DNA from: an uncultured Chloroflexia bacterium
GTDB lineage: Bacteria > Chloroflexota > Anaerolineae > CG2-30-64-16
Reading direction: 5' to 3'
DNA length: 64,000 nt
Assembly: GCA_963810095.1 (NCBI GenBank)
Contig: CAWEMM010000006.1
Span: 1-64,000, forward strand
Shown here: positions 9,360 through 26,773 of the stretch, piece after piece
Layout: every line of letters starts with the position of its first letter
How positions within the stretch are numbered: the stretch's first letter is position 1
Program-made: the position numbers and the translations under genes
The notes under the pieces: generated by a model
The model's database searches: none
What the model saw: only the letters and a program-made list of their open reading frames with translations
What the model was told of the DNA's origin: nothing

Positions 9360-10600
9360 AGATTTACCTCCACTCTCACCCGGGTGCCTGCACCCGGTTT
9401 GCTTTCATAAGTCAGGTTGCCGCCCATGCGTGCGGCGCGTTCGCCTAGGCTGCGGAGGCCCACGCCGCCTTGCCCTTCGGTTGAGTGCGTATCGAAGCCT
9501 ATGCCATCATCGCGGACTTCGAGGCGGATGCTGGTATCGGTGAAGAGCAGCCAGACACTCACGTGCTGCGCTCGCGCATGCTTCAGAACGTTATTGAGCG
9601 CCTCCTGCGCGATCCAGTACAGGTCTTCCTCGATCGCGATGGGCAAGCGCCGCTCCGCCTCCACACGGAACTCCGTCTGCAAACCGGCTCGCGTTTCGAC
9701 CGCGGCGAGCCGGGCCTGCAATACCGCGGCCAGCCCTTCGGTTTCCAGCTCGGGAGGATGCAGTTGGAAGATGAGCAGCCGCATATCACGCATGCCCTCT
9801 TGCGCGGTTTCCTGCAGTTCTTGCAGATAGCCGGCTGTGGCGTCTGTCTTGCCTGCGGCCAGCGCTAATGTTGCCGCGTTGGCGTAGAGCGTCACGCTAT
9901 ACAGCGACTGCGTAACAGAATCGTGCAACTCGCGCGCAAGCCGTTCCCGCTCGCCAAGCACCGCCAACTGCTCTGCCTGGCGTTGCAGGCGGGCGTGCTC
10001 GATGGCCATGGCGGCCTGGTTGGCGAACACCGACATGACGGGAATGTCTTCTTCCGTGAAGCCCCCCGCCTTGTTCACGACGTCGAACACGCCGATGACT
10101 CGGCCATCGACGTGCAGGGGCACAGTGAGCAGTGCGGTGAGTTCCGCCGGCCACTGGCGCACCTGGGACCGGTCGAAGACGGCCATGTCATTCACAAGCA
10201 CGGGTTCGCCGCGACGCACGACCTCGCCCGCGAGGGAACCGGATACAGGGACAGGTGTCATCGCCGGCGACGGACTGCCGAGTTGGTGCCTGACCTCCAG
10301 CCAGGTCCCGTCTGACAGAAGCAGCAGGACGGCACTGCCTGTAGCTCCAATAAGTCCTTGGGCTTGGGCGCAGACGAGGTCCAGCACCTGCTCCAGCGCA
10401 GTCTTGCGAAGCAGACTCACGAGGACCTGGCTGAAGCTCTCGCTCTCAGTCAGCCGGCGCTCGAGCTCCGCGTGGAGCTCGGCATTCCTCTGCGCTAACG
10501 CGGCTGTTGTGCGCTCGCGTTCGTCGATCTCAGCGCGTAACGCCTCGATCGTCTCTTCAACACGCGCACCGACCGTTCGATCATGACCCTCGTGCGGCAC
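9356..10600 (-). CDS. soluble GAF-domain sensor histidine kinase (HisKA_3 + HATPase)
   Basis: [18 protein letters not shown]-box, [12 protein letters not shown]-box, DDGIGF, GGVGL; GAF-like N-terminal half; 4-bp overlap with the response regulator. Confidence 0.9.
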
Positions 10601-10875
10601 AGGCTAATCTCCCCATAACACGACAGCCCAGGCAAGATTAGCCCGGGCTGTTCGCAGGCGTTGTTACTGGACTGCTTGTCAACATCAGCCTAACACCGAA
10701 GGACATTAAGGTCGGTAGTCCCAGCCACACAGAGGGAGGGGCGGAGCCAAGCGCTATAATGCCCCGCTATGTGGTCCTGGCCTGCGCTGGAGCCGCAGCG
10801 CGCTGGAAGACCTGACCCTGGTTCACACCGCAATTCTAAGGTTGAGATAGGATCATCCGGGGGTTAGGAGAAGAT

Positions 10876-10990: not shown

Positions 10991-11030
10991 GTGCTCGTCG
11001 AGGGTTACGCCACAGAGCTCGAGCAAGCCG

Positions 11031-11065
11031 GCCGCTCCCCCTGAAGGGAGAGACGGGGGAGCGGC
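11031..11065. terminator. perfect 11-bp inverted repeat downstream of the minus-strand phage-like operon
   Basis: GCCGCTCCCCC (11031-11041) / GGGGGAGCGGC (11055-11065); no clear U-tract. Confidence 0.4.
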
Positions 11066-11146
11066 GCAGTGTCACCTGCGGTGACGCGGCACGCTCCCCG
11101 CTTCGCTGTCCCTCAACGTATGAGGGCCCTCACCGTGTGAGAGTCC

Positions 11147-11573
11147 TTAGCTGGACCCCATCGCCTCGGGATGCGGCTCCGCGCCATTGTCGGCCGCCGG
11201 CACGTCAACCTTGGTCTTCTCGTCCGGAGGCGCCTTCGGGCCGGTCCCGTTGCTACCCGCCGGCGCGGCCTTCAGCCGGATCACGACCAACTCCCGGCCG
11301 GCGACGCGGATAGGCGTCGGCTCGAGCTGCACCCGCTTGCCGAAGCAGGCCGTCACGTCGTCCCCGAAGAGCGCCTGCAGCGCGTCCTGGTTCGGTGCCG
11401 GGCAGCACCAGGCCCTTCTTGGTCTCCTTGAAGTACAGGACCGGCGCCGGCCGCAGGCGCTTCTCGGCCTGCGAATAGACGTCTTCGATCACGACCTGAT
11501 CGATGGTCAAGCTCCGGGCATTCCCTTGCAGATGGTCGGCCTTCAGCCAGCGGTCGAAATCGCTCCACTTCAT
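11147..11573 (-). CDS. phage-type putative single-stranded DNA-binding (OB-fold) protein, frameshifted near 11395
   Basis: WLKADHLQG..LTIDQV..E....VLYFKETKKGLVL, then NQDALQALFGDDVTACFGKRVQL; pattern resembles phage 'YLKAxDL...LxLNxTN...GkxIxL' proteins; GAGGAGG RBS. Confidence 0.5.
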
Positions 11574-11624
11574 CGTTGGTTCCTCCTCTTAAGTGATTGT
11601 GTGCGACCTGCGGTCGCGTGCGTA

Positions 11625-11873
11625 TCAGTGTCCTGCGCGCCGGCGGTCAGCCAGGTGGATCAGGTCCACGCGCTGGCCGCCGGTGGTCAGGATGCGGTTG
11701 CGCAGGCGCCAGACGGCGATCGCGATGTTGTCGGTCTCACGGACGTGGGCGAGAAAGGCGGTGAGCACCTTTTGAGTGAGGTACTCGCCGCCGTCGTACA
11801 TGTGCGCCAGGTCCTCGGCCGGCTCGGGAAACACGCCCAAGTCCACAAGAGCCCGGTAGAGGTCCTGGTTCAT
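11625..11873 (-). CDS. hypothetical protein, 82 aa
   Basis: GGAGG RBS; ATGA overlap with the upstream stop; MNQDLYRALVDLGVFPEPAEDL. Confidence 0.6.
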   Translation of the reverse strand: MNQDLYRALVDLGVFPEPAEDLAHMYDGGEYLTQKVLTAFLAHVRETDNIAIAVWRLRNRILTTGGQRVDLIHLADRRRAGH

Positions 11874-13280
11874 GCCGCCTCCAAGAGTTCCAGCGGCCTC
11901 GCCTGGTCGAGCGAAAGAGCGACGCGTCGACCGGCACCGGGCCGTCGAGATCCAGCCGTCGGCGGGCAAGGGCCAGTTCCAACGGGCCGATCGCCTCCGG
12001 GTCGCCCAGCAGCGCGCTCGCCCGGGGCGTCTCGCCGAGGTCGATCAGGCTGGCACGGGTCACGATCGCCACATCCTCCAAAGCGCTGCGGATGTTCTCG
12101 ACGTTGCGCGCCTCCGGCCGACGGTCGAAGGTCTCGCGCACGCGGGCGATCATCCGGCGTGGACTCCTCGTCGCCAAAGAAGTTCAAGGACCCGATCTGC
12201 TCGATCAGGTTTTTGAGCTGGACGACCGAGCGGGGATGCAGCTTGCCCTGGTTCTTCTGCATCGTCTTGAGCACGTCGGTCGTCGCCTCGTAGATCGTGG
12301 TTCGCAGTTGGACCACAACGTCCTTGAGGAACGTGTCGATCAACTGCTGCTTCTTGCGCCGCGCCTCGGCGACGACCTCGTCGTTCATGCGGGCCAGCTT
12401 CTGGCGGCGTTCCCGGTCGGCCTCGTCGCGGATGGCGATCTCCTTCCAGAGCTCGTCCCGGGCGAGCTCCGCCTCCATGCGCTCCCGCTGGCGCTCCCGC
12501 TCGATGCGCTCCTTCTCACGGGCATCCTCGGCCAGGAGGCTCGGCAGCGGGATGTAGGAGAACTCCTCTTCCCAGGCAAACGAGCGCTCGAATTTCGAAC
12601 GGGCTGGGGATCAGGGCCAGGATGCGGCGGACGAAACGGTCCACGAAGTGTCGCTCTTCGAGCATATCGTCGATGGCGTCCTGCCGGGTCATGCCGTCGG
12701 GCGTGAGGGCCCGAGCCCGCCGGAACGCGGCGCGAGCGGCGCCACGATAGGCGTCCGTCAGCTGGGCGAGGATCGTGTCGTACTCCGCGACGATCTGCTC
12801 GCGGGCCTCGAAGTAGCGGCGCTTGTGCGTCTCGTTTTCGGCCTGCCACTGGGCGAAGTTCGTCGCCGGCACGAACACACCCCAGTAGGTGGCGTAGCCG
12901 TTCCGCTCCAGGGCCTTGCGGCCGGCCGATTCGATCGCCTCGAGCTGCTTGGCGAGGTCGAGCGGGAGCAGGCGCTTGTCGCCGAGCTCGAACAGGTCGC
13001 CGATCAGGTCGTCGGCTTCCTTCGGCAGTCCGAGGTCGTCGGGGTCGAGGCGGCACTTGGCGCGCCAGCGGCGGACGTGCAGCTTGACGACGACGCCCTC
13101 GCGCATGAGGCTCAGCCAGCGCGGGGCTTCGGTGCGAATGTTGGAGGCGCCGAGGATACGGGCAAGCTCCTGCTTCTCGCGCTCCAGGGCGGTGGCAATT
13201 TGCCGGGAGCGTCGGCTGGACGGGCTGTCGTGAAGCGGCTTACTTTGTGTTCCTCGCATTGTGCTTGACACAATGGTCAA
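11870..13280 (-). CDS. DUF3150-like mobile-element protein (several frameshifts, start uncertain)
   Basis: VVVKLHVRRWRAKCRLDPDDLGL...LGDKRLLP...LEAIESAGRKALERNG...GVFVP resembles DUF3150; coiled-coil continuation in ORFs 11870-12478 and 11737-12177. Confidence 0.45.
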
Positions 13281-13293
13281 TCGCGCGTATCAT
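13257..13293 (+). promoter_or_regulatory. higBA sigma70 promoter with overlapping palindromic operator; probably leaderless
   Basis: TTGACA (13265-13270), 17 bp, TATCAT (13288-13293); palindrome TTGAC-N6-GTCAA (13265-13280); ATG at 13300 is 7 nt after the -10. Confidence 0.7.
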
Positions 13294-13299
13294 GGAGCC

Positions 13300-13581
13300 A
13301 TGATCCGAAGCTTCAAAGACGCCGACACCGAGAAGATCTTCCGACATCGACGGGCGCGAAGGTTCCCGCCAGAGATTCACCGGCCAGCGCTGCGGAAGCT
13401 TGAGTACTTGAACGTAGCGCGAACGCTGAACGACCTGCGCGAGCCACCGGGGAATCGCCTCGAGAAGCTGGCGGGCGAATGAGCCGGGTAGTACAGCATA
13501 CGAATCAATGACCAATGGCGGATCTGCTTTAAATGGCGCGACGGCGACGTGTATGAGGTTGAAATCACGGACTACCACTGA
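13300..13581 (+). pseudogene. higB: HigB (RelE/ParE family) toxin with two in-frame stops
   Basis: MIRSFKDADTEKIF...[33 protein letters not shown]...VEITDYH; TGA 13480-13482, TAG 13489-13491. Confidence 0.85.
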
Positions 13582-13591
13582 GGAGGGAATC

Positions 13592-13984
13592 ATGCCTGAT
13601 AGGGATATGGACGAGGAGATGATGCTGCCGGTTCATCCGGGCGAAATACTGCTGCACGAGTTCCTGCTGCCGATGGGGATGACGGCCCACCGGCTCGCGC
13701 TGTGCATTGGCGTGGACCCGCGGCGGATTCACGACATCATTCAGGGAAAGCGCAGTGTGACGGCGGACACGGCGCTGCGTCTGGGACGGTTCTTCAATGT
13801 CTCACCGGAGATTTGGATGGACCTGCAGACGAAGTATGACCTGGAGATGGCTTCGCTCGAGCTCAAGGACCGCCTGGAGGCTGAAGTGAGGCCGTGCCCC
13901 GAGAGTAACGCTGACGCGTGGCAGACGCGACCGCAGACAAAGCAGCGGAGGGTCAGGACGCAGCCAGGCCAGGTCGCTGCTTAA
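13592..13984 (+). CDS. higA: HigA family HTH antitoxin
   Basis: PVHPGEILLHEFL.PMG...IIQGKRSVTADTALRLGRFFNVSPEIWMDLQTKYDL; GAGGAGG RBS. Confidence 0.9.
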   Translation: MPDRDMDEEMMLPVHPGEILLHEFLLPMGMTAHRLALCIGVDPRRIHDIIQGKRSVTADTALRLGRFFNVSPEIWMDLQTKYDLEMASLELKDRLEAEVRPCPESNADAWQTRPQTKQRRVRTQPGQVAA

Positions 13985-14094
13985 TCCCTTTAGCGCATAG
14001 GGCCGCGACCCATAGGGGTCCTGACCCGTTTCGAATGCATAAACGACGGCAGTCCCGGACTGCTTCTTGCGTCCCTGCTCACCCCGAGACTAGC

Positions 14095-15399
14095 ATGCAG
14101 CCAGCCGATCCATCGAATCACCCAAACCTCGATTTTGCTGGGGAAGATACCCTTTACGCGACCCATGGGCTGCACGCCTATGCGGCGAAATGTCCGCCGC
14201 AGTTAGCCAGCTTCGGCATCTCGCACTACTCTCCTCCCGGCGGCGTGGTCCTGGACCCCATGTGCGGCAGCGGTACCACCTTGGTCGAGGCTCGCCTTCT
14301 GGGCCGCTCGGCGTTGGGCTACGACCTCGACCCACTCGCATGCCTTATTGCCCGCGTGAAGGCAAGTGACGTCAGCGACGCGGAGATCGGCCGGCAAGTT
14401 GAGAACGTGATCAGGGCGGTCGAGCAAGACTTGGCAGTTCTGAAGGATGGCCGCGTCACAGACGACCTGCGCGCCCGTGCAACTCCGCCTGATTTCCCGC
14501 GCCGAGACTACTGGTTTGAGCCGGAAGTCAGCCAAACACTCGCCCTGCTGGCCTCGCACATCGGGCAGTCCGCAGCGCCAGCAAGCGTCAGGGACTTCCT
14601 CTGGCTTGCGCTCTCGTCGGTCATCCTCTCCAAAGTAAGCGTTGCGAATGCGCGCGACATCATCCATTCCAGGCACCATCACTTCGCGCACGCGGTGGCG
14701 CCCGACGTCCTCGCCAGATATCGGACGCGCGTCCGCACAATGCGGAGGCAATTGGCTTCGTTTCAGGCCATGTGCGCCGGGAAGCACTCTGCCTGTACCG
14801 TAAGCGTGGAACAATGCGACGCGTGGCATTTGCCCTTGGACGGGGAGTCGGTCGACCTGGTCCTCACGTCACCGCCCTATGCGACAGCTCTCGACTACCC
14901 GCGCGCCCATTTTATGGCCGTCGCCTGGATGCAGCCCATTCTCGGTGTGAGCTTGAGTGACTATATGGCCGGAGCATCGGGTTACGTCGGGAGTGAACGC
15001 GGGCGCGTGGAAAAGGCTTTTGTGCGCGATCCCCAGCTTGCTGCGTTGCCGGTAGCTACTGCGGCAGTCGAGATGCTCAAGGAGCGAGACACCCGCCAAG
15101 CCCACCTCATTCAGCGTTACTTTCTGGATATGCAGGCTGTACTGGCCGAAACCTCGCGGGTGCTGAAGGCGGGCGGGCACCTGTTCATCGTGGTTTGCCC
15201 ATCGCATGTCCGAAAAGTCCAGATACCCACCCATTTGGTATTCACCGAGATGGCCCAGGTCTTGGGACTTACGCTTACCGGTCAGCATGAGCGCACCATC
15301 AACGGGAATCGCCGAATCCTTCCCTATATGCGGGAAGCGTTTGGGGACCGGATGAACACAGAGTACCTCCTCATTTACCGGAAGGCGCAACAGGGGTGA
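14095..15399 (+). CDS. DNA amino-methyltransferase, probably N4-cytosine (motif I before motif IV)
   Basis: THGLHAYAAKCPPQ, motif I VLDPMCGSGTT, motif IV LVLTSPPY, RVLKAGG. Confidence 0.85.
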   Translation: MQPADPSNHPNLDFAGEDTLYATHGLHAYAAKCPPQLASFGISHYSPPGGVVLDPMCGSGTTLVEARLLGRSALGYDLDPLACLIARVKASDVSDAEIGRQVENVIRAVEQDLAVLKDGRVTDDLRARATPPDFPRRDYWFEPEVSQTLALLASHIGQSAAPASVRDFLWLALSSVILSKVSVANARDIIHSRHHHFAHAVAPDVLARYRTRVRTMRRQLASFQAMCAGKHSACTVSVEQCDAWHLPLDGESVDLVLTSPPYATALDYPRAHFMAVAWMQPILGVSLSDYMAGASGYVGSERGRVEKAFVRDPQLAALPVATAAVEMLKERDTRQAHLIQRYFLDMQAVLAETSRVLKAGGHLFIVVCPSHVRKVQIPTHLVFTEMAQVLGLTLTGQHERTINGNRRILPYMREAFGDRMNTEYLLIYRKAQQG

Positions 15400-16025
15400 T
15401 GGATCGCGACGATTTGCGCGTGCTCGGGATCGAGCTCCACGAGCGCATGTTGAGCGGCGATGTGACTGCACTTGCGCGCCTGGCCGAAGCCTTCCTGGGC
15501 CCGCTTATCACCTCGCTGCAGCGCCTGCACCTTGACCTGCCGGATCCACACATGGTCGATACAGCAGTTGAAGATGTCTTGCTCAACTATGCCGACCACC
15601 CCGATCGCTATGACCCGACTAAGCTCGATCTTTTCGGTTACCTCCGCATGTCGGCCAGGAGCGACCTTCTCAATCTGCGCCGCCACTTTGGGCCGGAATT
15701 CGTCAGCGTCGAATCTGCTGTCGAACTTGAGGATACGCCAGGGGAACATATAGTAGAGACTGCAACCGATGGCGTCCTTGATGACGAAGTTATCGCCGCA
15801 CTTTCGCCAATGTGGGACCGCCTCGCCGTGCTCCTCCCGGAGTTCACGGACCGCCAGATCGTGTGGCTGTTGATGGAGGGCGAACGCAATACGGATGAGT
15901 ACGCCGCTGTCCTCGGCATCCTTGAACTGCCTCGCGAGGAGCGCGCAAGAGAGGTCAAGCGGCATAAGGACCGGGTCAAAGTGACGCTCCGGCGGCGGAT
16001 AGGGGAGTTGAGACTTGATGAATGA
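15396..16025 (+). CDS. ECF-type sigma-70 family factor (sigma2 + sigma4)
   Basis: GDVTALARL...AVEDVLL...RYDPTKLDLFGYLRMSARSDLLNLRR (region 2); LPEFTDRQIVWLL..GER...YAAVLGI...VKRHKDRVKVTLRR (region 4); GTGA overlap with the MTase stop. Confidence 0.7.
   Translation: MMDRDDLRVLGIELHERMLSGDVTALARLAEAFLGPLITSLQRLHLDLPDPHMVDTAVEDVLLNYADHPDRYDPTKLDLFGYLRMSARSDLLNLRRHFGPEFVSVESAVELEDTPGEHIVETATDGVLDDEVIAALSPMWDRLAVLLPEFTDRQIVWLLMEGERNTDEYAAVLGILELPREERAREVKRHKDRVKVTLRRRIGELRLDE
15719..15760 (+). promoter_or_regulatory. candidate alternative-sigma promoter inside the sigma gene
   Basis: TGTCGAACTT-N13-GGGAACA...AGT-AGAGAC; matches the copy at 17274-17316. Confidence 0.55.
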
Positions 16026-16512
16026 GAAGGGAGCCCGAGAGGGCGGGCTGTCCCAGCTAGCAGCGCTGGCGGTCCGTCTGCGCGCAAATCAGGCATACAT
16101 GGCGTGGTCGTTGGGCGAGTACGGCCGTGAGGAGCACCTCGGCGAAGACGAGGTGGCCTTGGTCCTGGGCCTAGACACCGCGATGTTCACGCGGCTCGCT
16201 CTCTGCAGGCGTCCCGATTCCGCGCGGCCCGACTTCGCCGAACAGGTGAAGCAGATCGCCGAGTACACTGGTATCGATGCCGCGGTCTTGGCCGCCCTTC
16301 TGCGCCAGGTGGAGTCTGTCTCTGTCCTCACTACCCTACCATCTCCCGAACTCGGGGCCAGACCCGTATCGTCCCCGTTGGCTCTGCGGCCCGGGCTGTT
16401 GTCCGCAGCCCGCGATCGTGCCAGTGACTCCGAGCCCAGCGAGGAAGCGGACGAAGCAGGCTCCGACGAAGAGGAGCCGAACGCGACCGCCTCTACCGAT
16501 CCTACTGACTAG
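16018..16512 (+). CDS. degenerate XRE/HTH-like protein with acidic tail; candidate substrate of the adjacent protease
   Basis: LGEYGREEHLGEDEVALVLGLDTAMFTRLALCRRP...QIAEYTGIDAAVLAALLRQ; C-terminal LLSAARDR then acidic low-complexity tail; overlaps the sigma stop. Confidence 0.6.
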   Translation: MNEKGAREGGLSQLAALAVRLRANQAYMAWSLGEYGREEHLGEDEVALVLGLDTAMFTRLALCRRPDSARPDFAEQVKQIAEYTGIDAAVLAALLRQVESVSVLTTLPSPELGARPVSSPLALRPGLLSAARDRASDSEPSEEADEAGSDEEEPNATASTDPTD

Positions 16513-16527
16513 CCATGGAGGTCGTCC

Positions 16528-17268
16528 ATGTGGCTCGACAATGAGGCCCAGGACGCAATCGAGTTCTTTTGGAGCGCGGCCGGTGAGACGGAACCGTTCC
16601 CCCGTCAGTTGGAGCGTCCCCTCCTGTTTGCACTGCCCGTGGCGTTGGTGAAGTTGCCCCGCCTCACCCTATGGGAGATCGAGCGGTGGCTTCATCGGCG
16701 GGGCCCGGCCATTTCATTTAGCTGCCAGAACCGCGGAGTGCGCGGCTGCCTGATTGCCTTCGGCGGCAAGGGGATGATCTTCGTTGACGGCGCGGACCCG
16801 GCAGACGAGTTGCGGTTCACAATTGCCCACGAGGTGGGACACTTCCTCGTTGACTACCTCTTGCCCCGGCAGAAGGCCGGCCGCCGCTTCGGCCCATCTA
16901 TCTGGGAGGTTATGGATGGGATGCGGGTGCCGACAGTCGCCGAACGCCTCTACGCCATACTCGATCGCACACAAATAGGCGTGCATACCAACCTGATGGA
17001 TCGCGTCCCGGCGGATGAGCATGAGAATCTGGGTAAAATCGAGGAGCGCGCTGACCGGGTGGCCCTCGAACTCCTCGCGTCCCACGAGCTTGTGCTGGCG
17101 GAGCCCGACGTCAGTCGGCCCACATACCCGGAGCGCTTTGCTGCGGTCACCGCGGCGCTCATGTCCGTTTATGGTCTCCCGCTGGCCGTCGCTAGGTCGT
17201 ATGCCCAGGCGCTGCTTGATCTTGCCGGCAAAGGACCATCTTTTGCCGAATCGCTCCGCCAACGCTAA
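16528..17268 (+). CDS. ImmA/IrrE family (M78) zinc metallopeptidase
   Basis: RFTIAHEVGH (HExxH) and EERADRVALELL; GGAGG RBS. Confidence 0.85.
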   Translation: MWLDNEAQDAIEFFWSAAGETEPFPRQLERPLLFALPVALVKLPRLTLWEIERWLHRRGPAISFSCQNRGVRGCLIAFGGKGMIFVDGADPADELRFTIAHEVGHFLVDYLLPRQKAGRRFGPSIWEVMDGMRVPTVAERLYAILDRTQIGVHTNLMDRVPADEHENLGKIEERADRVALELLASHELVLAEPDVSRPTYPERFAAVTAALMSVYGLPLAVARSYAQALLDLAGKGPSFAESLRQR

Positions 17269-17273
17269 TCTCG

Positions 17274-17316
17274 TGTCGAACTTCGGCTTCTCCCGCGGGT
17301 ACAGTGAGTGAGAGAC
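17274..17316 (+). promoter_or_regulatory. candidate alternative-sigma promoter upstream of nurA-herA
   Basis: TGTCGAACTT-N13-GGGTACA...AGTGAGAGAC in the intergenic gap, just upstream of the AAGGAGG RBS at 17337-17343. Confidence 0.6.
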
Positions 17317-17347
17317 ATTGTTGACGGTGAAGGTGCAAGGAGGATCG

Positions 17348-18553
17348 ATGGCTGAAGCTAACTCGGTGGGTGCGCCCGGCGCGGGCCAAACGGCAGTCGC
17401 GCTGCCGGTGATGCCGGAGTTCGACGCCGCTTTTGGCGAGTCGTTTGCGCAGACGCTCGATTTGGACACCTGGACTCTCGGGGGTGATCTTCTCGAAAGT
17501 TACGCACGCCTGGAGCAAGAAATTGCGGAAGCTACCGCCCAGGAAACAGACCGCCGTAAGGCAGTTCGGGAGGTGGTTTTCAGCCAGCTCAAGGGTCGAC
17601 CGGGAGCCCCGCGAAATGCGGGCCTTTATCAGGCGCAGCGGGCGGACCTTGAACGCGTCCACCGGGGCCTTTTGTTCAACGGGGGTGTGGAGGCATGCGA
17701 CGGCATAAGCGTCGTCCATGACACCATCCCACTGACCATCACGCAAATCGGTGTGTGCTTGGTTTCGTACAACGAGGAGCAAGGCTCATGGTCACATCGC
17801 CTGTACCGGCGTGATCTCCGCTCCCGCATGAAAGACCCTGTCGAGGAAGTGCTCACGCTGCTAGATAAGCGCGAGAAACGCGAATCACAGGGGCAGGAGG
17901 GCAACGAGATTAGCGAGTTGGCCCGGCGGGGCATCATGACTTATGCGGAGCGGGCGATCCTGCGGCACAAGTCGACAGCGCGTTGGCGCATGGGCCATGG
18001 AAATCCGGCTCCGTATGAGTTGCTGGCAGGAAAATGGTCCTCCCGACCCGAAAATCTTGCCGTAAGCCTTGAAATGATAGAGTGGTACGTCAACTACAAG
18101 CGGTTTGTCTTTGTCCCGAGCGCACCCAGTCGGGACTGGCTTACAATCGGATATGCCTTGAACCCCACAGAGTTCGCGATCCTGGGCACCTTGGAGCCCG
18201 ACATCGATAAGCTGGTTAGTAAGGGCGGGTACCGCGGCGCGGTAAGGCAGGCGATGGAGAGGTTCCGCGACGATGTAGCGCCCCAAATCGTGGTTGGCGT
18301 CTATCGTGTCTGGGAAGCGGCGCCCCCTTACGTGTTCTACGCACACTTTGACAACGCCGAGATGGCGGCCCACATCGCCATGGCCGACAGTATGCTCCAG
18401 GAGCACCGTGGCTTCCCGATGTTGATTGACCTGGCCGATACCGTCTGCAGCACGACTTTCGGCGTCGACAGTTTCATGGCTTCCGTCCAAACGGCCTACG
18501 CCAACGCCGGCGAGCCGTTCCGCTACCTGGGTGAACGCGAGACACGCTACTAA
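17348..18553 (+). CDS. NurA-like (RNase H fold) nuclease
   Basis: VEACDGIS (DG motif), RRGIMTYAE, C-terminal RGFPMLIDLADTVC (GyP..L..A[HD] motif); directly upstream of a HerA gene. Confidence 0.7.
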   Translation: MAEANSVGAPGAGQTAVALPVMPEFDAAFGESFAQTLDLDTWTLGGDLLESYARLEQEIAEATAQETDRRKAVREVVFSQLKGRPGAPRNAGLYQAQRADLERVHRGLLFNGGVEACDGISVVHDTIPLTITQIGVCLVSYNEEQGSWSHRLYRRDLRSRMKDPVEEVLTLLDKREKRESQGQEGNEISELARRGIMTYAERAILRHKSTARWRMGHGNPAPYELLAGKWSSRPENLAVSLEMIEWYVNYKRFVFVPSAPSRDWLTIGYALNPTEFAILGTLEPDIDKLVSKGGYRGAVRQAMERFRDDVAPQIVVGVYRVWEAAPPYVFYAHFDNAEMAAHIAMADSMLQEHRGFPMLIDLADTVCSTTFGVDSFMASVQTAYANAGEPFRYLGERETRY

Positions 18554-18583
18554 TGACGAGTGATGCAAAAGGAGAGGTGACCA

Positions 18584-20459
18584 ATGAACGGGATGACCAA
18601 GGACCTGCGGCCAACTGACGGCGACCGCGACGATGACTCCATTGAGCAGATGCCCCTCAGCTTTGCCGCCGACCTCGACGCGGAGATCAGCGGCGCCGGT
18701 GGGGAGTGGGATGAGGGACAGGAATATGCCGGCGCCATCGGGCGGACGATGTTCGATACGCCGGCGAGCAAGGATAACACGGTGACGGTCCTGCTGCCTC
18801 CCCAGCAAATCGGCACCGTGCCGGCCCAATCACTTGTACGGATCAAGAGCCGCCCGGTCGACAAGGGCGGGGACGGCCGGCAGTATCTCGGTGCGGTGGT
18901 CGGAGGACCGTTCGCCGAGCCGGATGGCCTGAAGGCGGATGCTCCGATTGTTACGACAATCACGATACGCGGGACCATGTTCATGCCGCGCTACCATGGC
19001 CGTATCCAGGTCGAAATCCTCGGCGAGGAGGTGGAGGGCGCTCTCGAACCGCCGCGCTTCCGCCCGCTGCCCAACAGCCCAGTCTTCGTACTCGGCGACG
19101 AGGAGACGCGTGTGATGCTCGGCCTTATCAGCGACATCACGCTGGGTGCCGCAGTTGGATTTGAGGACATGCAGGTGCAAATACCCGCACGACGCAAATC
19201 CGTGCTGCCGCGGCATGTTGGGGTGCTGGGGACCACCGGTGGCGGCAAGTCGACCACGGTCTCCGGGTTGGTAGCCGAGTTCCAGCGCGCGGGGATTGCC
19301 ACGGTCCTGATAGACACTGAGGGCGAGTACACCGAGATTGGCGAACCGACTGACGATCCTACGATGGTCCGCCTGCTCGCGCGGCTTGGTCGGCAGCCGG
19401 CCGGCGTGCCCAACGTAAAGGTCTATCACCCGGTTGGGCGCGAGACGACCGCACCGGCAGGGTCGAGCAGGCATCCGTTCCAGCTCAAATTCTCGAGCCT
19501 ATCCCCCTATGCGGCGGCTGAGATCATGGATTTGACCGACGCGCAGGCAGATCGTTTCATCAAGGCTTACGACACGGCAAAACTGGTGCTGCGCGAATCT
19601 GGGCATTTTTCCCAAGAAGGACGCGCCGAAGGAAGCACAACTGGCGTTGGAACTGAACGAATTCGAAACCGGGTACCCGCGCCTGACGCTCTCGCATCTC
19701 ATCGATATCGTCGGTTTCTTTCTCGCCCATCTGGGGAAAACCGAGCCCGAGCCTTACAACCAGGAATTCAAAACGGACGACGCGGTCAAGGTCATCAAGC
19801 AGCGCGTGGCCCAGGTGCACACCGATAATGAACGCAGCTGGCGGGTCCTTCTGAGCAAGCTCTGGCATCTTCACCGCCCGCGCATTTTCGACAACGTCGA
19901 CGCCACCCCGATGCCTTACCGGGAACTTGTTACGGCAGGGCAGGTATCGATCGTTGATCTGAGCGGCACTGATTCGACCATGATCAACAACCTGGTCATC
20001 TCCAACATTCTCCGTGGAATCCAGTTGCGGCAGGAAGAGGCATACGAGAAGGCTGCCGAGGACAAGGTCGAGCCAACCCCTGTGATGATCGTGATCGAGG
20101 AAGCGCACGAATTCCTGTCGCGCGACCGCATCGCCAAGATGCAGAACCTGTTCGAGCAGGTTGCGCGCATCGCCCGCCGGGGCCGCAAGCGTTGGACCGG
20201 CTTGATGTTCGTCACGCAACTCCCGCAGCACCTGCCCGACGAGGTGCTTGGCCTGATCAACAACTACATCTTGCACAAGATCAGCGACGTGAATGTGGTC
20301 AGCCGGCTGAAGCGCTCGATCGGTGGAATCGACGAAGGACTGTGGAACCGCCTGCCCAACCTGGCGCCGGGGCAGGCGATCGTCTCGATGACGAGCATGT
20401 CCCGCCCGCTGCTCGTCGCCATTAACCCGACCCCTTGCAGGCTGCGCATGATCGACTGA
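18584..20459 (+). CDS. HerA/FtsK family ATPase (HAS barrel + ATPase); one-base insertion near 19596
   Basis: RHVGVLGTTGGGKST Walker A, IDTEGEY, IVIEEAHEF Walker B, RRGRKR, VTQLP; removing one A at 19596-19597 fuses ORFs 18584-19828 and 19647-20459 (LRDLGIFPKKDAPKEAQLALELNEF). Confidence 0.88.
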
Positions 20460-20894
20460 GAGGGGGATTAAGTGTTCCGGCGGAAATCGGACGCCGGGCG
20501 CAACCGCAAACAAACGTGGACAGCTCCCCGTGCCGGCTAGCCACCGGCACAGGGGCGTCTATGGCAGCCACAGACCATAGAGATCGAAAGGGAGCGCGGC
20601 ATCGCGACGATCAGCCTGGCGCCGGACGGGACTTTCGGCCAGCGTTTCGATTCGCCAACCGGCCCGATAGAGACGGTTGGAACCTGGGTTATCGATGCTG
20701 ACGGCATGAATCTCCACGGTGCCAGGTTCTTGCCTTATGGACCCCGGCCTGACCTGGCCGACCGTTCAAGTACCCGATTACGTTCTCGCCAGAACGCGCG
20801 TTTCATCTTATCGTGCTTTCAACAGCCCGGCGGGGATGAATGAATCGTCCGGCTACGGAACGAACCGGGAAAAGCAAACACAAGGAACAAAACG

Positions 20895-22367
20895 ATGGCG
20901 AGGATGCTCGATCGCCTGAGCGCACCGGACGTCGAAACCGCGCTCGTCTCAGCGGCCTGGAAGGATATATCCGTTTTCGGGATCGATCTCGATCCGGCCG
21001 ACTTCTCCGTGCCACGACTCCGGTCGACCTGGCGGGCAATGCAAGAGCATGTCCGGAGCAGCCAGACGGTCGACAAGGCCCTCTTCCAGCTGGCACTGCA
21101 ACAGACCCTGGACGGCGCGAGCCTGCTATACCAGATAGATCTCGAGAAGCTCGAAGCCCTCTACCCGGACCCGCAGGCATGTGCGGCCCAAGTGCGCGAT
21201 CTGGCCCAGCGACGGCGCGCGGAGGCCGAGCTGGACGCCGCGGGTAAGATCATCTATACCGAGAGCCGCAGATGGAGGGCTAACCTTGCCGCGAGCGCCG
21301 CGCGGCTTCAGAAGCTGGCCCTGCCCCAGCGCCCGGGCGGACCGTCCACGGGGACGAGCTGGAGCGCGGCTGATCTGTTGGCCGCGGAGTTCGCCCAGCC
21401 AGAGTGGGCCGTGCCCGGATTGATCCCGGTGGGGCTGTCGTTTCTCGGCGGGCGGCCGAAGGTGGGCAAGTCGTACCTGGCGCTGCAGATCGCCATCGCA
21501 AAAGGGACGGGCGGCCGCGTGTCGGGCCGCGAGGTCGAGCAAGGGCCGGCGCTGTACCTGGCGTTGGAGGATAACGGCCGGCGGCTGCGCGAGCGGGTGA
21601 GCCGGCAGCGCATGCCGGGGAACGCGCTGGTGCGGTTCGAAACCGCGTGGCCCGGGCTGACGGAGGGCGGGCTGGCACGCCTCGAGACCACGATCGAGGC
21701 GGAGGGGTACCGGCTGGTGATCCTCGACACCCTGGGCCGTGCGGCGGGGCGTGTCGACATGGACGACTACAGGGTGATGACCGAGCTTGCAGGGGATGGC
21801 GCTGGCCCGGGACATCGCGATCCTGGTGGTCGACCACTACCGGAAAGGCGCGCTGGCAGGCGAAGACGACCCGATCGATGCGATCATGGGCAGCACAGGC
21901 AAGGTAGGTGCCGCCGACGCGGTGCTCGGGCTGACGCGGCAGCCGGGCAAGCCCACCGCGCGGCTGCGGGTGAAGGGCCGCGAGCTCGAAGAGCTGGAGC
22001 TGGCGCTGACGTGGGACCCGGCACTCTGCAGCTGGCAGTGCGAGGGGACCGCGGAGGACGTCGCGTTGTCGGGGAGAAGAGGGCGAGGTGCTGGCGATCC
22101 TGCAAGAGGCATACCCAAAGTCGATGCTGGCGGGCGAGATCGCGCAGGCGGCAGAGATGCAGCGCGGCGAACGTGCTGCCGCTGCTGAACGACCTGGTGC
22201 GCGAGGGCAAGGTGAAGAAGGCAGCGAGACAGGGCAAGGATCAGCCCTACCGCGCCGCGCGAGGCGACGAGGAAGGCCGCCTGGGAGGCAACCTGCATGA
22301 TGTGAGTGAGGGGCGTGGGGCCCTGTCTAGACCTCTCCGTACTTGTACTTCGTGCTCTCTTCGATGA
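20895..22367 (+). CDS. RecA/DnaB-type AAA_25 (RepA-like) helicase with C-terminal winged HTH, frameshifted
   Basis: WAVPGLIPVG, Walker A GRPKVGKS, ALYLALED, LVILDTL; alternate frames give ILVVDHYRK...IMGST...AADAVL and LAGEIAQAAEM...LLNDLVREGKV. Confidence 0.75.
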   Translation: MARMLDRLSAPDVETALVSAAWKDISVFGIDLDPADFSVPRLRSTWRAMQEHVRSSQTVDKALFQLALQQTLDGASLLYQIDLEKLEALYPDPQACAAQVRDLAQRRRAEAELDAAGKIIYTESRRWRANLAASAARLQKLALPQRPGGPSTGTSWSAADLLAAEFAQPEWAVPGLIPVGLSFLGGRPKVGKSYLALQIAIAKGTGGRVSGREVEQGPALYLALEDNGRRLRERVSRQRMPGNALVRFETAWPGLTEGGLARLETTIEAEGYRLVILDTLGRAAGRVDMDDYRVMTELAGDGAGPGHRDPGGRPLPERRAGRRRRPDRCDHGQHRQGRCRRRGARADAAAGQAHRAAAGEGPRARRAGAGADVGPGTLQLAVRGDRGGRRVVGEKRARCWRSCKRHTQSRCWRARSRRRQRCSAANVLPLLNDLVREGKVKKAARQGKDQPYRAARGDEEGRLGGNLHDVSEGRGALSRPLRTCTSCSLR

Positions 22368-22530
22368 TCTTGATCTCCGCCGGCGTCAGGTCCAACAACT
22401 CGTAGATCTTCGCGTTGAGCTCCGTATCAAACTGAACGATCGTTTCAAGCGCCGAGATAATCACTCTTGATCCTCCGAACGTTCCGGTACAGCCGGTCAT
22501 ACAGGTCATACACGTCATACACGATCTTCA
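22327..22530 (-). pseudogene. C-terminal remnant of an Eco57I/type IIG-like restriction-modification protein
   Basis: ETIVQFDTELNAKIYELLDLTPAEIKIIEE resembles the terminal 'D..id..vY.Ly.Lt.eEi..iE' motif; no upstream gene body. Confidence 0.5.
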
Positions 22531-22640
22531 ACGCCCCGGACAGAACCAATAGCACCGGCCCGGCGAGCGGGCAACTGCTGTTGCCCCGAACACGTGCGGG
22601 CTCAAGCTGCAGGCCGGTTCCCCAACCGATCAGCCCCGCA

Positions 22641-23528
22641 TCACGTCCAACAAAACCCTTCATCGCACACGTCGAGCAACGCGGGCTTTTCTTCCAGCCC
22701 CTTGGTTACCAGCTCGCCCAGCGGCATCCCAGTATAGTGCAGCGTGATCGCGCCTTCGATGCCGTCGGCAAAGCGCCCATGATGCGCCAGCAACTCGTTC
22801 TCGACCCGGCACGCCGACGCGAAGTCCTCCGGGTGCTCAGCCGCCAACATCCGCCAGTAGCGCGGCGTCATGAAACGGGCAGATGCGGCAGGAACTCTTG
22901 TTCGGCACTGGCAGACCGCGCAACGCTAGCCAGATGGCGCACTGGTTGCGGGTAAGGTCGAGGTCGACCAAAGGCCAGCAGTTTACGATCCACGGCTTGC
23001 GGTTGGGCTTGAGGCGGTGCGCTTCGTCGGTCGTCAGACCCAGCCAGCACTCCACCAGCACGCCCTGCTTCACCACCTGGGCCGTCATCGTCTTCATGCG
23101 GCGCGGGCGCGTCAGGCCGCGCTCGGCCAGCAGGCTCTTGATGTAGCCCTGGATCACCCGCACCTTCAAGAACTCCGTGCACGTGCGACTGCGTCGCCCG
23201 GCGCAGCTGGGCGCGCTTGCCATCGAGGTGCGCGTAGGCCGGAATCGACATGTACACGGTGTCTGACAGCAGCTTGCCGACAATGCTGCCGGGGAGCGCG
23301 CTACACGTGCAGCCTGACCAGGGGCACGCCGATCTGCTGCAGCCGCCCCTCCAGATAGGTCAACTGCTGGTAGACGTACGACGGTACATCTTCAAGGTCG
23401 CTGAACACCGCCAGGTCGACCTTCGGCAGGATCCCAAGCACCATCATCTCGACGATCGCAGATGACTGGATGCCGGCGCCGAGGCCGAGGTAGCGGAGCG
23501 CGACACCCTTCGGTCCCTCACTTGTCAC
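22641..23528 (-). CDS. phage-type PAPS-reductase-like (PP-loop) protein, several frameshifts
   Basis: LGLGAGIQSS, AVFSD, WLGLTTDEAHRLK, NCWPLVD..LTRNQCAIWL...LPVPNKSSCRICPFH, terminal CDEGFCWT. Confidence 0.65.
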
Positions 23529-23644
23529 GCTTCTGTAACGCCCTTTCGCGGTTTCTCACCTGGGATTATCGCGCGCAGGCGTTCCATTAGTCGCGTACGT
23601 TAACTGATACCAGCGCCACGACCGGTCCTAAAGCGGTGTTAGCA

Positions 23645-24624
23645 TCACAGCCGCCAGTTCTCAACCGGGCTGGCCACCTGATGGCCGTTGACGATGTCGA
23701 CCTGTGCTATCCGGGTATAGGTCATGAGCATATCCAGGCTTTCGTGCCCCAGGACGTCCTGCAGCGTCCGCTCATTGCCGCCGTTGCGTAGGTATTGGAT
23801 GGCGAACGTGTGCCTGAACTTATGGGGATGCGCATCCGGGACGCCGGCAACCTCCGCCAGGCGATAGATCAGCTTCAGCAGCGTGTTTCTTGTCATCGGC
23901 TCGCCAGATACCGACAGGAACACCGGTTCATTTACCCTGGCCTCGGCCCGATTCTCGAGGATGTGCTTGCTCAGGGCGGACTTCGTCCGCGGGCCGATTG
24001 GCAGCGAACGCTCCTTCGAGCCCTTCCCAAAGACGAGGACTACCCCGTTCCTGAGGTCGACGTTGCGCAGCTCGAGCCCGCACAACTCGGACGCTCGCAT
24101 TCCCGTGTCGATCAGGAGTAGGAGTATGGCGCGATCGCGAACCGCCGTCGAGCGCTCGTGGTCGGATTCCTTCTTGCCGGGCCGGGTGTATGGCGCCGAC
24201 CGGCGACTGGCTGCAGCCAAGAGCCGCTTGATGTCATCCTGCGTGAACGGCACGATCACCGGCTTCTCGGGCTTCGGCCGTTCGATCTGGTGGAGGATGT
24301 GCGTCCGGACGTAGCCTTCCGCGACCGCCCAGGTCTATAGGGCACTGAGGCCGGTATGGATGTTCAGCTTCTGTTTCTTGCCAATCGGGCGAGGAGGTCT
24401 GGGAGCGATGCCAGCAGGCGCGCGTGGGGTCGACAGGTCGACCAAGAAGCGGCGAATGTCATCCGCCGAGATCTTTTCCATAGGCGGATCGCCAATGAAG
24501 GCTTGCAGCTTGCGGAAAGCGTTTTGGTAGTCGGCGACGGTGTGCGGGCTCAGCGAGCGGGCCTCTGCGTCGAGCAAAAAGCCCGTGATCGCCTGCGATA
24601 AGAGGATCGTTTTCGTTTTGCCAT
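23645..24624 (-). pseudogene. tyrosine integrase with in-frame TAG (24335-24337) and a frameshift near the start
   Basis: Catalytic R (DTGMRASEL), K (GKGSKER), HxxR (HPHKFRHTFA), H (LGHES), Y (MTYT); N-terminal LSPHTVADY; GGAGG RBS before ATG 24624. Confidence 0.85.
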
Positions 24625-24759
24625 CCGTGATGCCCTCCGGTTCGCGCTACCCTCATCCCCTAATAGCAGAAACTCGACCACTAAGTTTCGGAGATGAAGT
24701 TTTTTTGCTAAACCGGAAGACCGTGAGGCCAGAGGTACCGTGAAGGGGCCTAGAAACAA

Positions 24760-24792
24760 CATCACGGATCGCATGTACTGCAACCCGTGATG
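24760..24792 (-). terminator. hairpin just downstream of the att copy
   Basis: CATCACGG...CCGTGATG inverted repeat followed on the minus strand by TTGTTTCT. Confidence 0.45.
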
Positions 24793-24796
24793 CAAA

Positions 24797-24842
<46 letters not shown>

Positions 24843-24987
24843 ACAAACCTCGATTTTCGACCTCCGACCACACGGCGAGGCGATTTTGGGTAGCCGTGTG
24901 GTCTCCGGCCCCGAAAGCCCCTGGTGGTCGGCGGTGGCCCTCTGCGGGTCCCCACAGAGCGGACTATTGAATTCCGGTAACGAGGGG

Positions 24988-25016
24988 ATTATAGCAGATG
25001 CCGGAGAGGTGATCAA
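24988..25016 (-). promoter_or_regulatory. strong sigma70 promoter pointing across att toward the integrase
   Basis: Minus strand TTGATC, 17 bp, TATAAT with extended TG. Confidence 0.6.
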
Positions 25017-25247
25017 GCGCCGACTTCGTGAAAACGCAAGGCAGCCAGCGTTCGGTGTAGGGCTAAGGCTCGGACGCAAAGCTGGCATAAATGATCTGGA
25101 GTTAAGCGACCGTGCAGCCTTGCTCACGGCGCGATCGTAGTCGACGACCCTAGGGGTCAAGCATCCCACAAACCCCGTTTGCGGCGCGGAGACCTGGAGA
25201 ACCCGTTCTTCGCCCGGCTCGAAGGACTTCTTCGTTGTGTCTTCCAG

Positions 25248-26174
25248 CTAACGGGGGCACCACCGCTTGTCTGGCACCCAGGCTTGTGCAAGCACCGTTC
25301 CTTGCGCAAGGGCCGATAGGACCGGCGCCAGGAATTGTGTGACCTCGGCGACGATATCCTCAAATCGCTCGTCCCCGACCTCCAGCCCCGTGCGGCTCAG
25401 GAAGGCGCGCCATTGCACGACCTTCTCCGCATCCTGCCCAAATGCAGGCGTCAATGCCACAGGGAGCTCCGGCAAAAGGGGAGTATCTCGGCGACTAAAG
25501 GCAGCGGCTACCGCCCGACAGAGAACCGGACCGTCGAACTCGCACTGCCGTGACAACAGCCAAATGTCGTAGAAATCCTTCATGCGGCTGTTGAGTTGGC
25601 CCAGCCGGACCATGGCGTGCAGTTTCTCGGCAATGACTGACTCGCGCGAGTAGACTCGCAGGACAGGCGCGGGAAAGTCGAGCAGGGTGGGGAATGCGGC
25701 TTCGGCAGCGGCAGGCACCACCACGTCGCCGAAGCCGACGTCGACGTGCAGCGGGAGGCGGGCCTTCCCAAGCATAGCCGTCAACATCACCCGCAGCCCC
25801 GCATACTCGTCGTCCTCGCGTACCGGCTGCACGCTGACACTGTCGGCGTCGAAGACCAATCCGTCTTGTTCGACCTCAACCGCGCACATCGCCCGAAAGG
25901 CCGCTACCAACCGCTCCGGGGATGAGTCTCCATAGCCCAGTAGGTCGAGATCGCGCGTCGGGCGATTCAGCCCGCTGATGCCCCAGGCATTGAACACCAG
26001 GGCGCCTTTCAAGACGAAGGCGTGCGCATAGGCCGATTTGCTGAGCCGGTACAGGAGTCGCTCGAGGGCAAAGCGCGTCAGGAGCAGGCTGAAGTTTTCG
26101 GCGCTCGCCTTGCTCCTGGTCAGCAGCCGTTGGTGGACGGAGGCGGGCAGGTTGACAGGAACTTTGTCCGTCAC
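25248..26174 (-). CDS. AbiEii/AbiGii nucleotidyltransferase toxin (type IV TA)
   Basis: FVLKGA, RPTRDLDL, DVGFGD, ESVIAEKLHA, NSRMKDFYD; GTGA overlap with the antitoxin stop. Confidence 0.9.
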   Translation of the reverse strand: MTDKVPVNLPASVHQRLLTRSKASAENFSLLLTRFALERLLYRLSKSAYAHAFVLKGALVFNAWGISGLNRPTRDLDLLGYGDSSPERLVAAFRAMCAVEVEQDGLVFDADSVSVQPVREDDEYAGLRVMLTAMLGKARLPLHVDVGFGDVVVPAAAEAAFPTLLDFPAPVLRVYSRESVIAEKLHAMVRLGQLNSRMKDFYDIWLLSRQCEFDGPVLCRAVAAAFSRRDTPLLPELPVALTPAFGQDAEKVVQWRAFLSRTGLEVGDERFEDIVAEVTQFLAPVLSALAQGTVLAQAWVPDKRWCPR

Positions 26175-26767
26175 AGGAGCGCCTCCATGTAGGGCTTCAT
26201 CACTTTGTCGATCCGGCAGATGCGGGCGTACTCCCACAACTCATCCGAGCGGCACTGCCGGAGGCGTAGGCACTCGCGCAGCGCCTCGATGGCCACATCG
26301 AGCCCGACCTTGTTGCGGTATTTGAAACAGTCGGCGACCGTCTTGGCCGGCGAGTAGAGGCGCACGGTCACGCCTTCGACCGTTGTCTCCTGAATCCCTG
26401 CCGTCAGCGCAGGACCAGGGAAGCGCACGATGCGCAGCGCCGGGTAGTCAATGTGGGGCCGTCGCGCTTTGCCGTCGATGGCGAGCCACACCTGCGGCGG
26501 GTTCTGCGTGCCGATGTTGTGGAACGCGAGCGCCGAGAGCAGGCACACGACGCCATTTGGCACCCTCTTGCAGGCCTCGGCCAGCGCATGGTGCTCGGTA
26601 ATGTCGGCGGCGGCAAGGGAGTAGAGACCCCGTCCAACACGCACCACCTGTCCGCTGCGCAGGAGGGGGCGTATGCTGGCCGGCAGCAAACCGAGCTGCT
26701 CTGGCAGGTCCCGCGCCCGCACCAGTCCCTTCTCACCGATGAACTTCAAAAGTGCATCTTTGCTCAT
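26171..26767 (-). CDS. AbiEi family antitoxin / transcriptional regulator
   Basis: N-terminal wHTH ...VVRVGRGLY, VCLLSALAFH, YSPAKTVADCFKYRNKVGLDVAIEAL. Confidence 0.9.
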   Translation of the reverse strand: MSKDALLKFIGEKGLVRARDLPEQLGLLPASIRPLLRSGQVVRVGRGLYSLAAADITEHHALAEACKRVPNGVVCLLSALAFHNIGTQNPPQVWLAIDGKARRPHIDYPALRIVRFPGPALTAGIQETTVEGVTVRLYSPAKTVADCFKYRNKVGLDVAIEALRECLRLRQCRSDELWEYARICRIDKVMKPYMEALL

Positions 26768-26773
26768 ACGCTC

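Follow-up and report, generated by a model that had tools for sequence, protein, structure and literature searches.

Two copies of a promoter-like motif were found in a 64,000-nucleotide stretch of DNA from an uncultured Chloroflexia bacterium (assembly GCA_963810095.1, contig CAWEMM010000006.1; the whole stretch is called the window below), one inside an open reading frame (ORF) coding for a sigma factor-like protein of the extracytoplasmic function (ECF) type, and the other in the gap between a peptidase gene and a nurA-like gene. Both belong to a cassette of co-directional genes in the order sigma factor, small helical protein, M78 peptidase, NurA-like protein and HerA. Our reading, to which we give a probability of about 0.75 from sequence comparisons, is that the two sites represent one private ECF-type promoter, with the product of the sigma gene at 15396-16025 as its reader, and that the internal copy would re-make the regulators without the sigma factor. 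The promoter nature of the sites, this sigma factor as their reader, the direction of the feedback and the signal are what we infer in this reading. A first-pass annotation of the same DNA had proposed that the sigma factor drives two transcripts, one starting inside its own gene (with genes that it called HTH and irrE) and one with nurA-herA, and comparative sequence evidence lends this proposal good support. The sigma-like gene and the two motif copies are:

15396-16025, plus strand: divergent ECF-type sigma factor, 209 amino acids (weak sequence scores together with a predicted fold)
15719-15748, plus strand: in-gene motif, with a -35-like box TGTCGAACTT (15719-15728), 13 bases (N13) and a -10-like box GGGAAC(A) (15742-15748)
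17274-17303, plus strand: intergenic motif, with TGTCGAACTT (17274-17283), N13 and GGGTACA (17297-17303)

Direct reading of the sequence gives two exact copies of TGTCGAACTT-N13-GGGWACA, at 15719-15748 and 17274-17303. The equal distance between the -35 and -10 boxes and the unrelated sequences of the two spacers, both noted in the first-pass annotation, were confirmed by this reading and by pattern searches. With up to 2 mismatches allowed, the pattern has 2 sites in the window, where 100 shuffles predict 0.00. These two copies are the only sites without mismatch in the full 6.13 Mb assembly, and 3 more appear at 2 mismatches (a reversed control pattern gave 4 matches). A repeat search lengthens the shared stretch in the 5' direction (AATCTGCTGTCGAACTT and AATCTCGTGTCGAACTT, with 15 of 17 bases identical, AATCT..TGTCGAACTT). 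It had also been claimed that AGT and AGAGAC follow both copies with identical spacing; these elements are indeed present at both, but with a one-base offset, since the in-gene copy is followed by TAT-AGT-AGAGAC (reaching 15760) and the intergenic copy by GTG-AGT-G-AGAGAC, and elsewhere this trailing piece is conserved in part only.

The first copy lies in frame within ORF 15396-16025 (residues AVELEDTPGEH), and its predicted start, near 15755, is ~263 bases 5' of the ATG of the next gene. The second lies 6 bases past the stop codon that closes ORF 16528-17268, and 45 bases separate its end from the ATG at 17348; the predicted start of this copy, near 17310, would leave a 5' leader of ~38 bases with GGAGG before that ATG. 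Across the family the motif takes the form (T)GTCGAACTT as -35, 12-13 bases and (G/C)GGAA(T/C) as -10, and the second copy of the window has GGGTAC as its -10. The two boxes are asymmetric, the spacer is fixed, and the orientation and the distance to the start codon are those of a -35/-10 pair; for these reasons, and because of the GAACTT in the -35 box, which we take to fit the AAC-type -35 of ECF promoters, the sites are read as putative ECF-type promoters. No known RNA family reached its gathering score between 13000 and 21000.

The 209-residue product is treated here as a divergent ECF-type sigma factor because of a sub-threshold NCBIfam score, the matches of its homologues and of a family profile against the PDB, the fold predicted by AlphaFold2 (AF2) and the rows returned by Foldseek. 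It aligns end to end with the NCBIfam model TIGR02937 (sigma70-ECF) at E=0.0029 and 17.2 bits (cut-off 42.9) and has no Pfam match at E up to 10, and Sigma70_r2 is matched by 6 of 11 homologues, 2 of them above the 24-bit cut-off. A profile built from 28 members of the family matched three PDB chains, all of them ECF sigma-E (2q1z at E=4.8e-4, 1or7 and 6jbq at E ~0.4). The AF2 model, with a predicted local distance difference test score (pLDDT) of 83.8, contains two helical domains (residues 1-100 and 138-208) and an interdomain linker, ~104-136, predicted to be disordered (pLDDT below 50 at residues 104-113 and 117-136), and it is to this linker that the in-gene motif maps. The model has the two-domain architecture of ECF factors, composed of sigma2 and sigma4 with a flexible linker and with neither sigma1.1 nor sigma3, and the top Foldseek rows are nearly all ECF sigma factors (CnrH, SigW, SigK, SigL, sigma-E, AlgU and SigH), with a probability of ~1 and E values of only 0.01-0.3. 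A further trait of the group, a promoter, often autoregulatory, with an AAC-containing -35 and a short -10 at fixed spacing, is also found here, beside and inside the gene, its promoter role being putative. The product is ECF-sigma-like by weak sequence scores plus a predicted fold.

Some observations touch the same gene. Rank 2 of the Foldseek search is chain C of 9n9q ('RNA-guided transcription complex'), a structural resemblance only. The first-pass annotation had also raised a sigma4-only product starting at the ATG at 15810, which was rejected: the Met is not conserved (among 25 homologues the window's Met column is common to one other sequence) and no conserved in-frame start with a ribosome-binding site was found, the commonest in-frame start column (15 of 25 homologues, with a ribosome-binding site in 4) falling in the middle of sigma4. 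In locus L037 of genome G347 (L and G numbers are our handles for loci and genomes) a second sigma paralogue without Pfam match lies on the opposite strand (~9941-10729, minus), ~5 kb downstream, and its linker carries CGTCGAGCTT-N12-GGGAAC (V-E-L-S-P-P-S-G-N).

Conservation of the in-gene copy as DNA

Synonymous-site conservation in homologous sigma genes, the check proposed with the first-pass annotation, was found both in a codon set of 30 representatives and in 72 metagenomic genes. The codon set was obtained from 33 coding sequences by keeping representatives with less than 80% nucleotide identity; L017 (unpublished genome), L014 (no tblastn match), L035 (short) and two duplicate loci had been left out. 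The motif stands at the same linker position in 26 of the 30 representatives under a loose definition and in 21 under a strict one (L063 was scored as lacking it owing to the alignment, though it carries a copy). Codon choice within the motif is nearly fixed: Val is GTC in 25/25 cases (33% elsewhere in the same genes), Gly is GGG in 17/17 (27% elsewhere), Arg is CGG in 6/6, Glu is GAA in 15/18 (33% elsewhere) and Leu is CTT in 9/15 (11% elsewhere). The codon before the Val ends in T in 22/30 sequences, where it codes for 8 different amino acids, vs 16% elsewhere. When columns are ordered by information content, third positions of the motif rank 2, 3 and 5 of 197, rank 1 being a Met column, and the conserved columns spell TGTCG.AC and GGAA. 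The GGAA bases of the -10 box are constant, and the residues encoded there are variable (G/R/P and N/K).

Metagenomic sequences extend this picture to two reading registers. From 80 metagenomic loci 72 distinct sigma genes were obtained, and the motif is present in 62 of them: 33 have a 12-base spacer and read the -10 as G/R-N/K, whereas the other 29, the subfamily of the window, have a 13-base spacer and read it as x-E-H/Y, for instance ACG GAA CAx. One DNA word is thus kept in two codon registers that give different residues, which selection on a peptide cannot explain, and the sequence comparisons make it unusually clear that the in-gene motif is preserved as DNA and not as protein.

The opposite account, in which the in-gene copy exists because a linker peptide (VEL....GN) is conserved at the protein level, and the likeness of this copy to the intergenic site is due to chance or is the relic of a duplication, has to be weighed against these data. 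A matching amino-acid footprint was found in 134 of 150 representative homologues (116 + 18 with one or other of two footprints, ~1 being expected in shuffles), so a peptide motif does exist in the linker. Nevertheless, codon choice is fixed at degenerate sites, the base before the Val is conserved across 8 amino acids, the two registers encode different residues and the linker is predicted to be disordered; moreover, a recent duplication is unlikely given the unrelated spacers of the two copies. This account is already contradicted, and we consider it highly improbable.

Cassette distribution and candidate readers of the motif

Homologues of the sigma factor occur in 35 of 401 sampled Chloroflexota genomes (the window's own genome counted), and a profile search gave a family of 877 clusters at 50% identity with E values of 1e-30 or better. 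In 20 loci extended to 15 kb, homologues of the five genes keep a constant order, bar two single-gene misses: the sigma factor in L042 (found in a separate homologue search) and the small protein in L051. The cassette is also present in Gemmataceae (Planctomycetota) and in Corallococcus and Hyalangium (Myxococcota). Downstream genes were scanned in 15 loci, and in 7 of these cas-family genes lie 3' of HerA, in the sets Cas4+Cas1, Cas1+Cas3, Cas6+Cas3 and RAMP+Cas10. In L048 (G040) a group II intron reverse transcriptase/maturase (RVT_1 + GIIM) is encoded directly upstream of the cassette.

The second copy was searched for with a position weight matrix trained on in-gene sites only, scanning both strands and, for genome loci, leaving out the locus's own site. 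In 13 of 21 genome loci the in-sigma site fills the top two ranks together with a site on the same strand after the peptidase gene (15 of 21 when the top three hits are taken), and this post-peptidase site lies 0-66 bases past the peptidase stop (227 in L053). Among the 31 metagenome loci whose flanks were long enough, 26 gave the same top-two pair, scoring 18 or more in 22. Intergenic copies read by eye have a -10 that ends 9-58 bases before the nurA-like start codon, and all copies of the motif are oriented with the downstream genes. The motif is therefore not absent from homologous loci, an outcome that would have spoken against the first-pass proposal, and upstream of their nurA-like genes, where a further check had been suggested, the same motif was found in the same orientation. 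A degenerate pattern searched in whole genomes gave exactly two hits each in G273 and G075, both in the cassette, one hit in G040 and none in G295, and reversed controls gave one hit in five genomes.

In some loci other genes are preceded by further copies. One lies before cas4 in L046 (10172), and two in L058, a locus from Gemmataceae (2577 and 4788, minus strand), precede a cas4-cas1 fusion gene, at a distance of ~40 bases, and a DUF2130 gene. The copies before cas4 and cas4-cas1 suggest that the regulon would reach CRISPR adaptation genes in some genomes. In L049 and L050 a third same-strand copy lies ~690 bases upstream of the sigma gene, before a 160-residue ORF without Pfam match, so the sigma factor may also be autoregulated there.

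Rare variants of the -10 are shared by the copies of a locus. The metagenomic loci L144 and L151 have CTGTAT/C as -10, instead of GGAAT, in both copies. The two Myxococcota loci, in which the peptidase and nurA-like genes follow each other without a gap, share CGAA between the in-gene copy and another that stands upstream of the sigma gene. One clade (L042, L045, L051 and the short loci L018, L028 and L033, with L018, L028, L033 and L014 equated with L042/L045/L051) carries the variant TGTC(A/C)AAA...GGGAA (-35 TGTCAAAA) at two places, one 5' of the sigma gene and one 3' of the peptidase gene, and the sigma4 helix of this clade reads VQLVKNR or VQQVKYR, vs VKRxKDR in the others. Intermediate -10 forms are also seen, GGGTAC in the intergenic copy of the window and CGGTAC in L141. 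This sigma factor is proposed as the reader because the motif travels with its gene, is nearly restricted to the cassette and co-varies.

Another sigma factor of the host, either the housekeeping one or a different ECF factor, might read the sites instead, an alternative that we regard as improbable. The sole sigma-70-like match between 13400 and 20800, TTGAGG-16-TATAGT at 15727-15754, does overlap the in-gene copy, and a TAnnnT-like stretch follows GGAA in several copies. Yet the sigma-70 scan gave 1 site against 2.1 expected by chance in these 7.4 kb, and the overlapping candidate was rejected as being at chance level. L037, L053 and L054 have no such TAnnnT stretch, the conserved columns being TGTCG.AC and GGAA. 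Against this alternative stand also the presence of the motif with this particular sigma gene in three phyla, its near confinement to the cassette genome-wide, and the coincidence of motif variants with variants of this sigma factor.

The second alternative for a DNA-binding partner is that the motif is not a sigma promoter at all, and is instead an operator bound by the small helical (possibly XRE helix-turn-helix, HTH) protein or by another repressor. M78 peptidases normally pair with a DNA-binding repressor, as in CapH/CapP (PMC13373217, Lau et al. preprint), there are faint XRE-like signals in the small protein, and both the DNA-level conservation and the co-variation of the copies would suit any DNA binder encoded in the locus. 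However, the two boxes differ from each other and neither shows a palindrome, while inverted repeats are what dimeric HTH repressors usually bind; the strict orientation, the 12-13 base spacer and the short distance to the start codon fit a -35/-10 pair, the -35 box contains GAACTT, and the HTH fold of the small protein is not confirmed. Inspection by eye of the regions upstream of the sigma genes gave no consistent operator-like palindrome shared among them. The chances of the operator account are, in our view, low, about as low as those of another sigma factor of the host.

Proposed regulation and related systems

In the promoter reading that we favour, the intergenic copy would drive the NurA-like and HerA genes, and in some relatives further copies may do so for cas4 or cas1. 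Transcription from the in-gene copy would cover the small protein and the M78 peptidase and no complete sigma gene, so that sigma activity would re-make its own regulators without self-amplification, forming a resetting (negative) loop similar to that of rseA P3 inside rpoE of Escherichia coli. By analogy with CapP, ImmA and IrrE, the peptidase probably cleaves the small protein in response to a DNA-damage or infection signal, and this cleavage would free or de-repress the sigma factor.

Several points weigh against this reading or limit it. The identity of the window's sigma factor comes from sub-threshold scores (no Pfam match, 17 vs 42.9 bits, Foldseek E of 0.01-0.3), and we know of no characterised ECF group to which the -10 GGGAAT could be matched. 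The clade with the variant motif is without an in-gene copy; as it is a single clade, this counts as one event. No post-peptidase copy was found in L036, L049, L056, L060, L061, L062, L161, L170, L172 and L180, the single whole-genome pattern hit of G374 falls outside its cassette, and position 6 of the -35 (A/C) co-varies imperfectly between the two copies of a locus. The binomial values for the codon bias overstate its significance because the sequences are related, the direction of the bias being unambiguous. Finally, the sign of the loop is one that we infer, since the small protein could be either a DNA-binding repressor or an anti-sigma factor.

A more elaborate scheme, which we put forward as tentative and rather doubtful, would make of the cassette a three-tier pulse generator, in which a peptidase that senses damage or infection cleaves the small protein, here a soluble anti-sigma factor and not an operator-bound repressor, and frees the sigma factor for inducible DNA-end processing, while the linker promoter limits the pulse. 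The sigma factor would then fire the NurA-like and HerA genes and, where present, cas4-cas1, coupling induced DNA degradation to spacer acquisition; the linker promoter would re-make the anti-sigma factor and the sensor only, and selection would keep this promoter in whichever codon register the linker allows.

The closest parallel to the in-gene copy is rseA P3 of E. coli, which PMC8595263, citing Rhodius 2006, describes as a sigma-E-dependent promoter inside the rpoE coding region, 228 nt before rseA. In both cases an ECF sigma gene holds a promoter of its own specificity (here putative and at the level of sequence) for the downstream regulator genes only, and the distance from the start to the next gene is similar, ~230 nt in rseA P3 and ~263 nt as predicted here. 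Unlike the E. coli case, the place of RseA/B/C is taken by a small helical protein of the cytoplasm together with an M78 peptidase, most loci lack a copy upstream of the sigma gene, the sigma family is distant and unclassified, and the motif, known here from sequence alone, is kept across at least three phyla in two codon registers. The other half of the cassette resembles CapH+CapP (and ImmR/ImmA or DdrO/IrrE), in that an HExxH M78 peptidase adjoins a small regulator directly upstream of a defence-type operon. It differs from them in having a sigma factor as a constant third member, in promoters that look sigma-specific and not repressor-controlled, in a small protein that falls below every HTH threshold, and in an output of NurA-like protein and HerA in place of a cyclic oligonucleotide-based antiphage signalling system (CBASS). 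The cassette would combine an intragenic autoregulatory promoter of the rseA P3 kind with a sensor pair of the CapH/CapP kind.

A sigma factor dedicated to defence has a precedent in DdvS of Myxococcus xanthus. DdvS is held by a membrane anti-sigma factor, whereas the sigma factor of the cassette has a soluble small protein and an M78 peptidase as partners. Like the sigma factor of the cassette, DdvS (in the DdvS/DdvA pair) is an ECF-type factor dedicated to a defence island, which in that case contains CBASS and type III-B CRISPR-Cas (PMC12288465). On the output side, clusters of HerA and NurA have been listed among 'Type III coevolved' CRISPR accessory genes (PMC6546367). The HerA of the window matches a 'Type III coevolved' model and the proportion of related loci with cas genes 3' of HerA points the same way, in contrast to the window cassette, which has no nearby cas genes and in which the NurA assignment is tentative. 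The trio of sigma factor, small protein and peptidase and its promoter are not mentioned in the accessible text of PMC6546367, and a literature search without most subscription papers found no published description of this promoter or of its in-gene copy.

If the promoter reading is correct, the sigma factor, small protein and peptidase would regulate defence and CRISPR-linked genes as a widespread trio that, in the accessible literature, is in print by mention only and uncharacterised. As the target promoter can be read off the sequence, sigma factor and promoter would form a ready-made orthogonal pair, and the switching-on of NurA-like/HerA modules beside CRISPR adaptation genes would become directly testable. 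The locus would also be a clear natural case in which a coding linker bears an overprinted regulatory DNA element, maintained in two registers, and the clade with the promoter-like motif upstream of the sigma gene provides a natural comparison for why the feedback arm would exclude the sigma factor.

Other cassette genes and the surrounding island

The remaining genes of the cassette and its upstream neighbour are:

13918-15399, plus strand: DNA methyltransferase (N6_N4_Mtase; Pfam PF01555 at E=1e-19, PADLOC MTase_II at E=1.6e-45)
16018-16512, plus strand: small helical protein, 164 amino acids (homologues in 19 of 20 related loci)
16528-17268, plus strand: M78 (ImmA/IrrE/CapP-like) metallopeptidase (Peptidase_M78 PF06114 at E=2.8e-5, PADLOC CapP at E=8.2e-8)
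17348-18553, plus strand: NurA-like protein, 401 amino acids from the ATG (ESM Atlas lead, tentative assignment)
18584-20459, plus strand: HerA-type ATPase (Pfam DUF87/HerA_C, with PF01935 at E=2.7e-16 and PF05872; PADLOC HerA)

The stop of the methyltransferase gene overlaps the sigma start by 4 bases. Such a methyltransferase precedes the sigma gene in 4 of 7 loci whose upstream gene was scanned (L038, L040, L042 and L051), and is an optional upstream neighbour of the cassette.

The ATG of the small-protein gene overlaps the sigma stop (ATGAATGA). LALCRRP and AARD motifs are conserved in the protein, which has an acidic tail, and its AF2 model (pLDDT 80.6) contains six helices. The window protein has no Pfam match. 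HTH_17/HTH_31 were matched by one homologue at E ~3e-4 to 9e-4, short of the cut-offs, and 2ef8 came up at E=0.97 when a profile was run against the PDB. In Foldseek all E values were 0.9 or above, the XRE rows having E of 1-4, and the best Z of VIA-align was 5.3. The 'HTH' label of the first-pass annotation finds weak XRE-like resemblances here, but an HTH fold is not established, and we describe the protein as a candidate cleavable repressor or anti-sigma factor in which an XRE-HTH fold is hinted at.

For the peptidase, PF06114 is matched by 13 of 13 homologues and the HExxH residues H101, E102 and H105 are invariant in 17 sequences.

The 401-residue protein gave no match supporting NurA in Pfam (E up to 10), PADLOC, NCBIfam or a PDB profile search, and PF09376 was found in none of 13 scanned homologues at E up to 0.001. 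The lead comes from the ESM Atlas, where the nearest clusters (0.97, 0.97 and 0.95) carry PF09376 NurA on 21%, 30% and 64% of their members. The name nurA given at first pass is thus backed by this lead but by neither Pfam nor PDB; the gene itself is conserved across related loci.

The HerA of the window matches the PADLOC 'Type III coevolved' HerA model, and 14 homologues also match HerA families. Its gene is frameshifted near 19600-19680 into two overlapping ORFs (18584-19828 and 19647-20459), and in tblastn residues 33-366 of a 629-residue HerA homologue align in one frame and residues 339-629 in another, which could reflect either a real frameshift (a pseudogene) or an assembly error.

The region from ~11000 to 27000 is island-like. 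In addition to the cassette and the methyltransferase, it codes for a DUF3150 protein (12519-13280, minus strand), a HigA antitoxin (13508-13984), an AAA_25 protein (20895-22367), a short Phage_integrase ORF (23648-24259, minus strand) and an AbiEii toxin (25251-26237, minus strand). Genes coding for ribosomal protein S6 and RelA/SpoT lie beyond this stretch.

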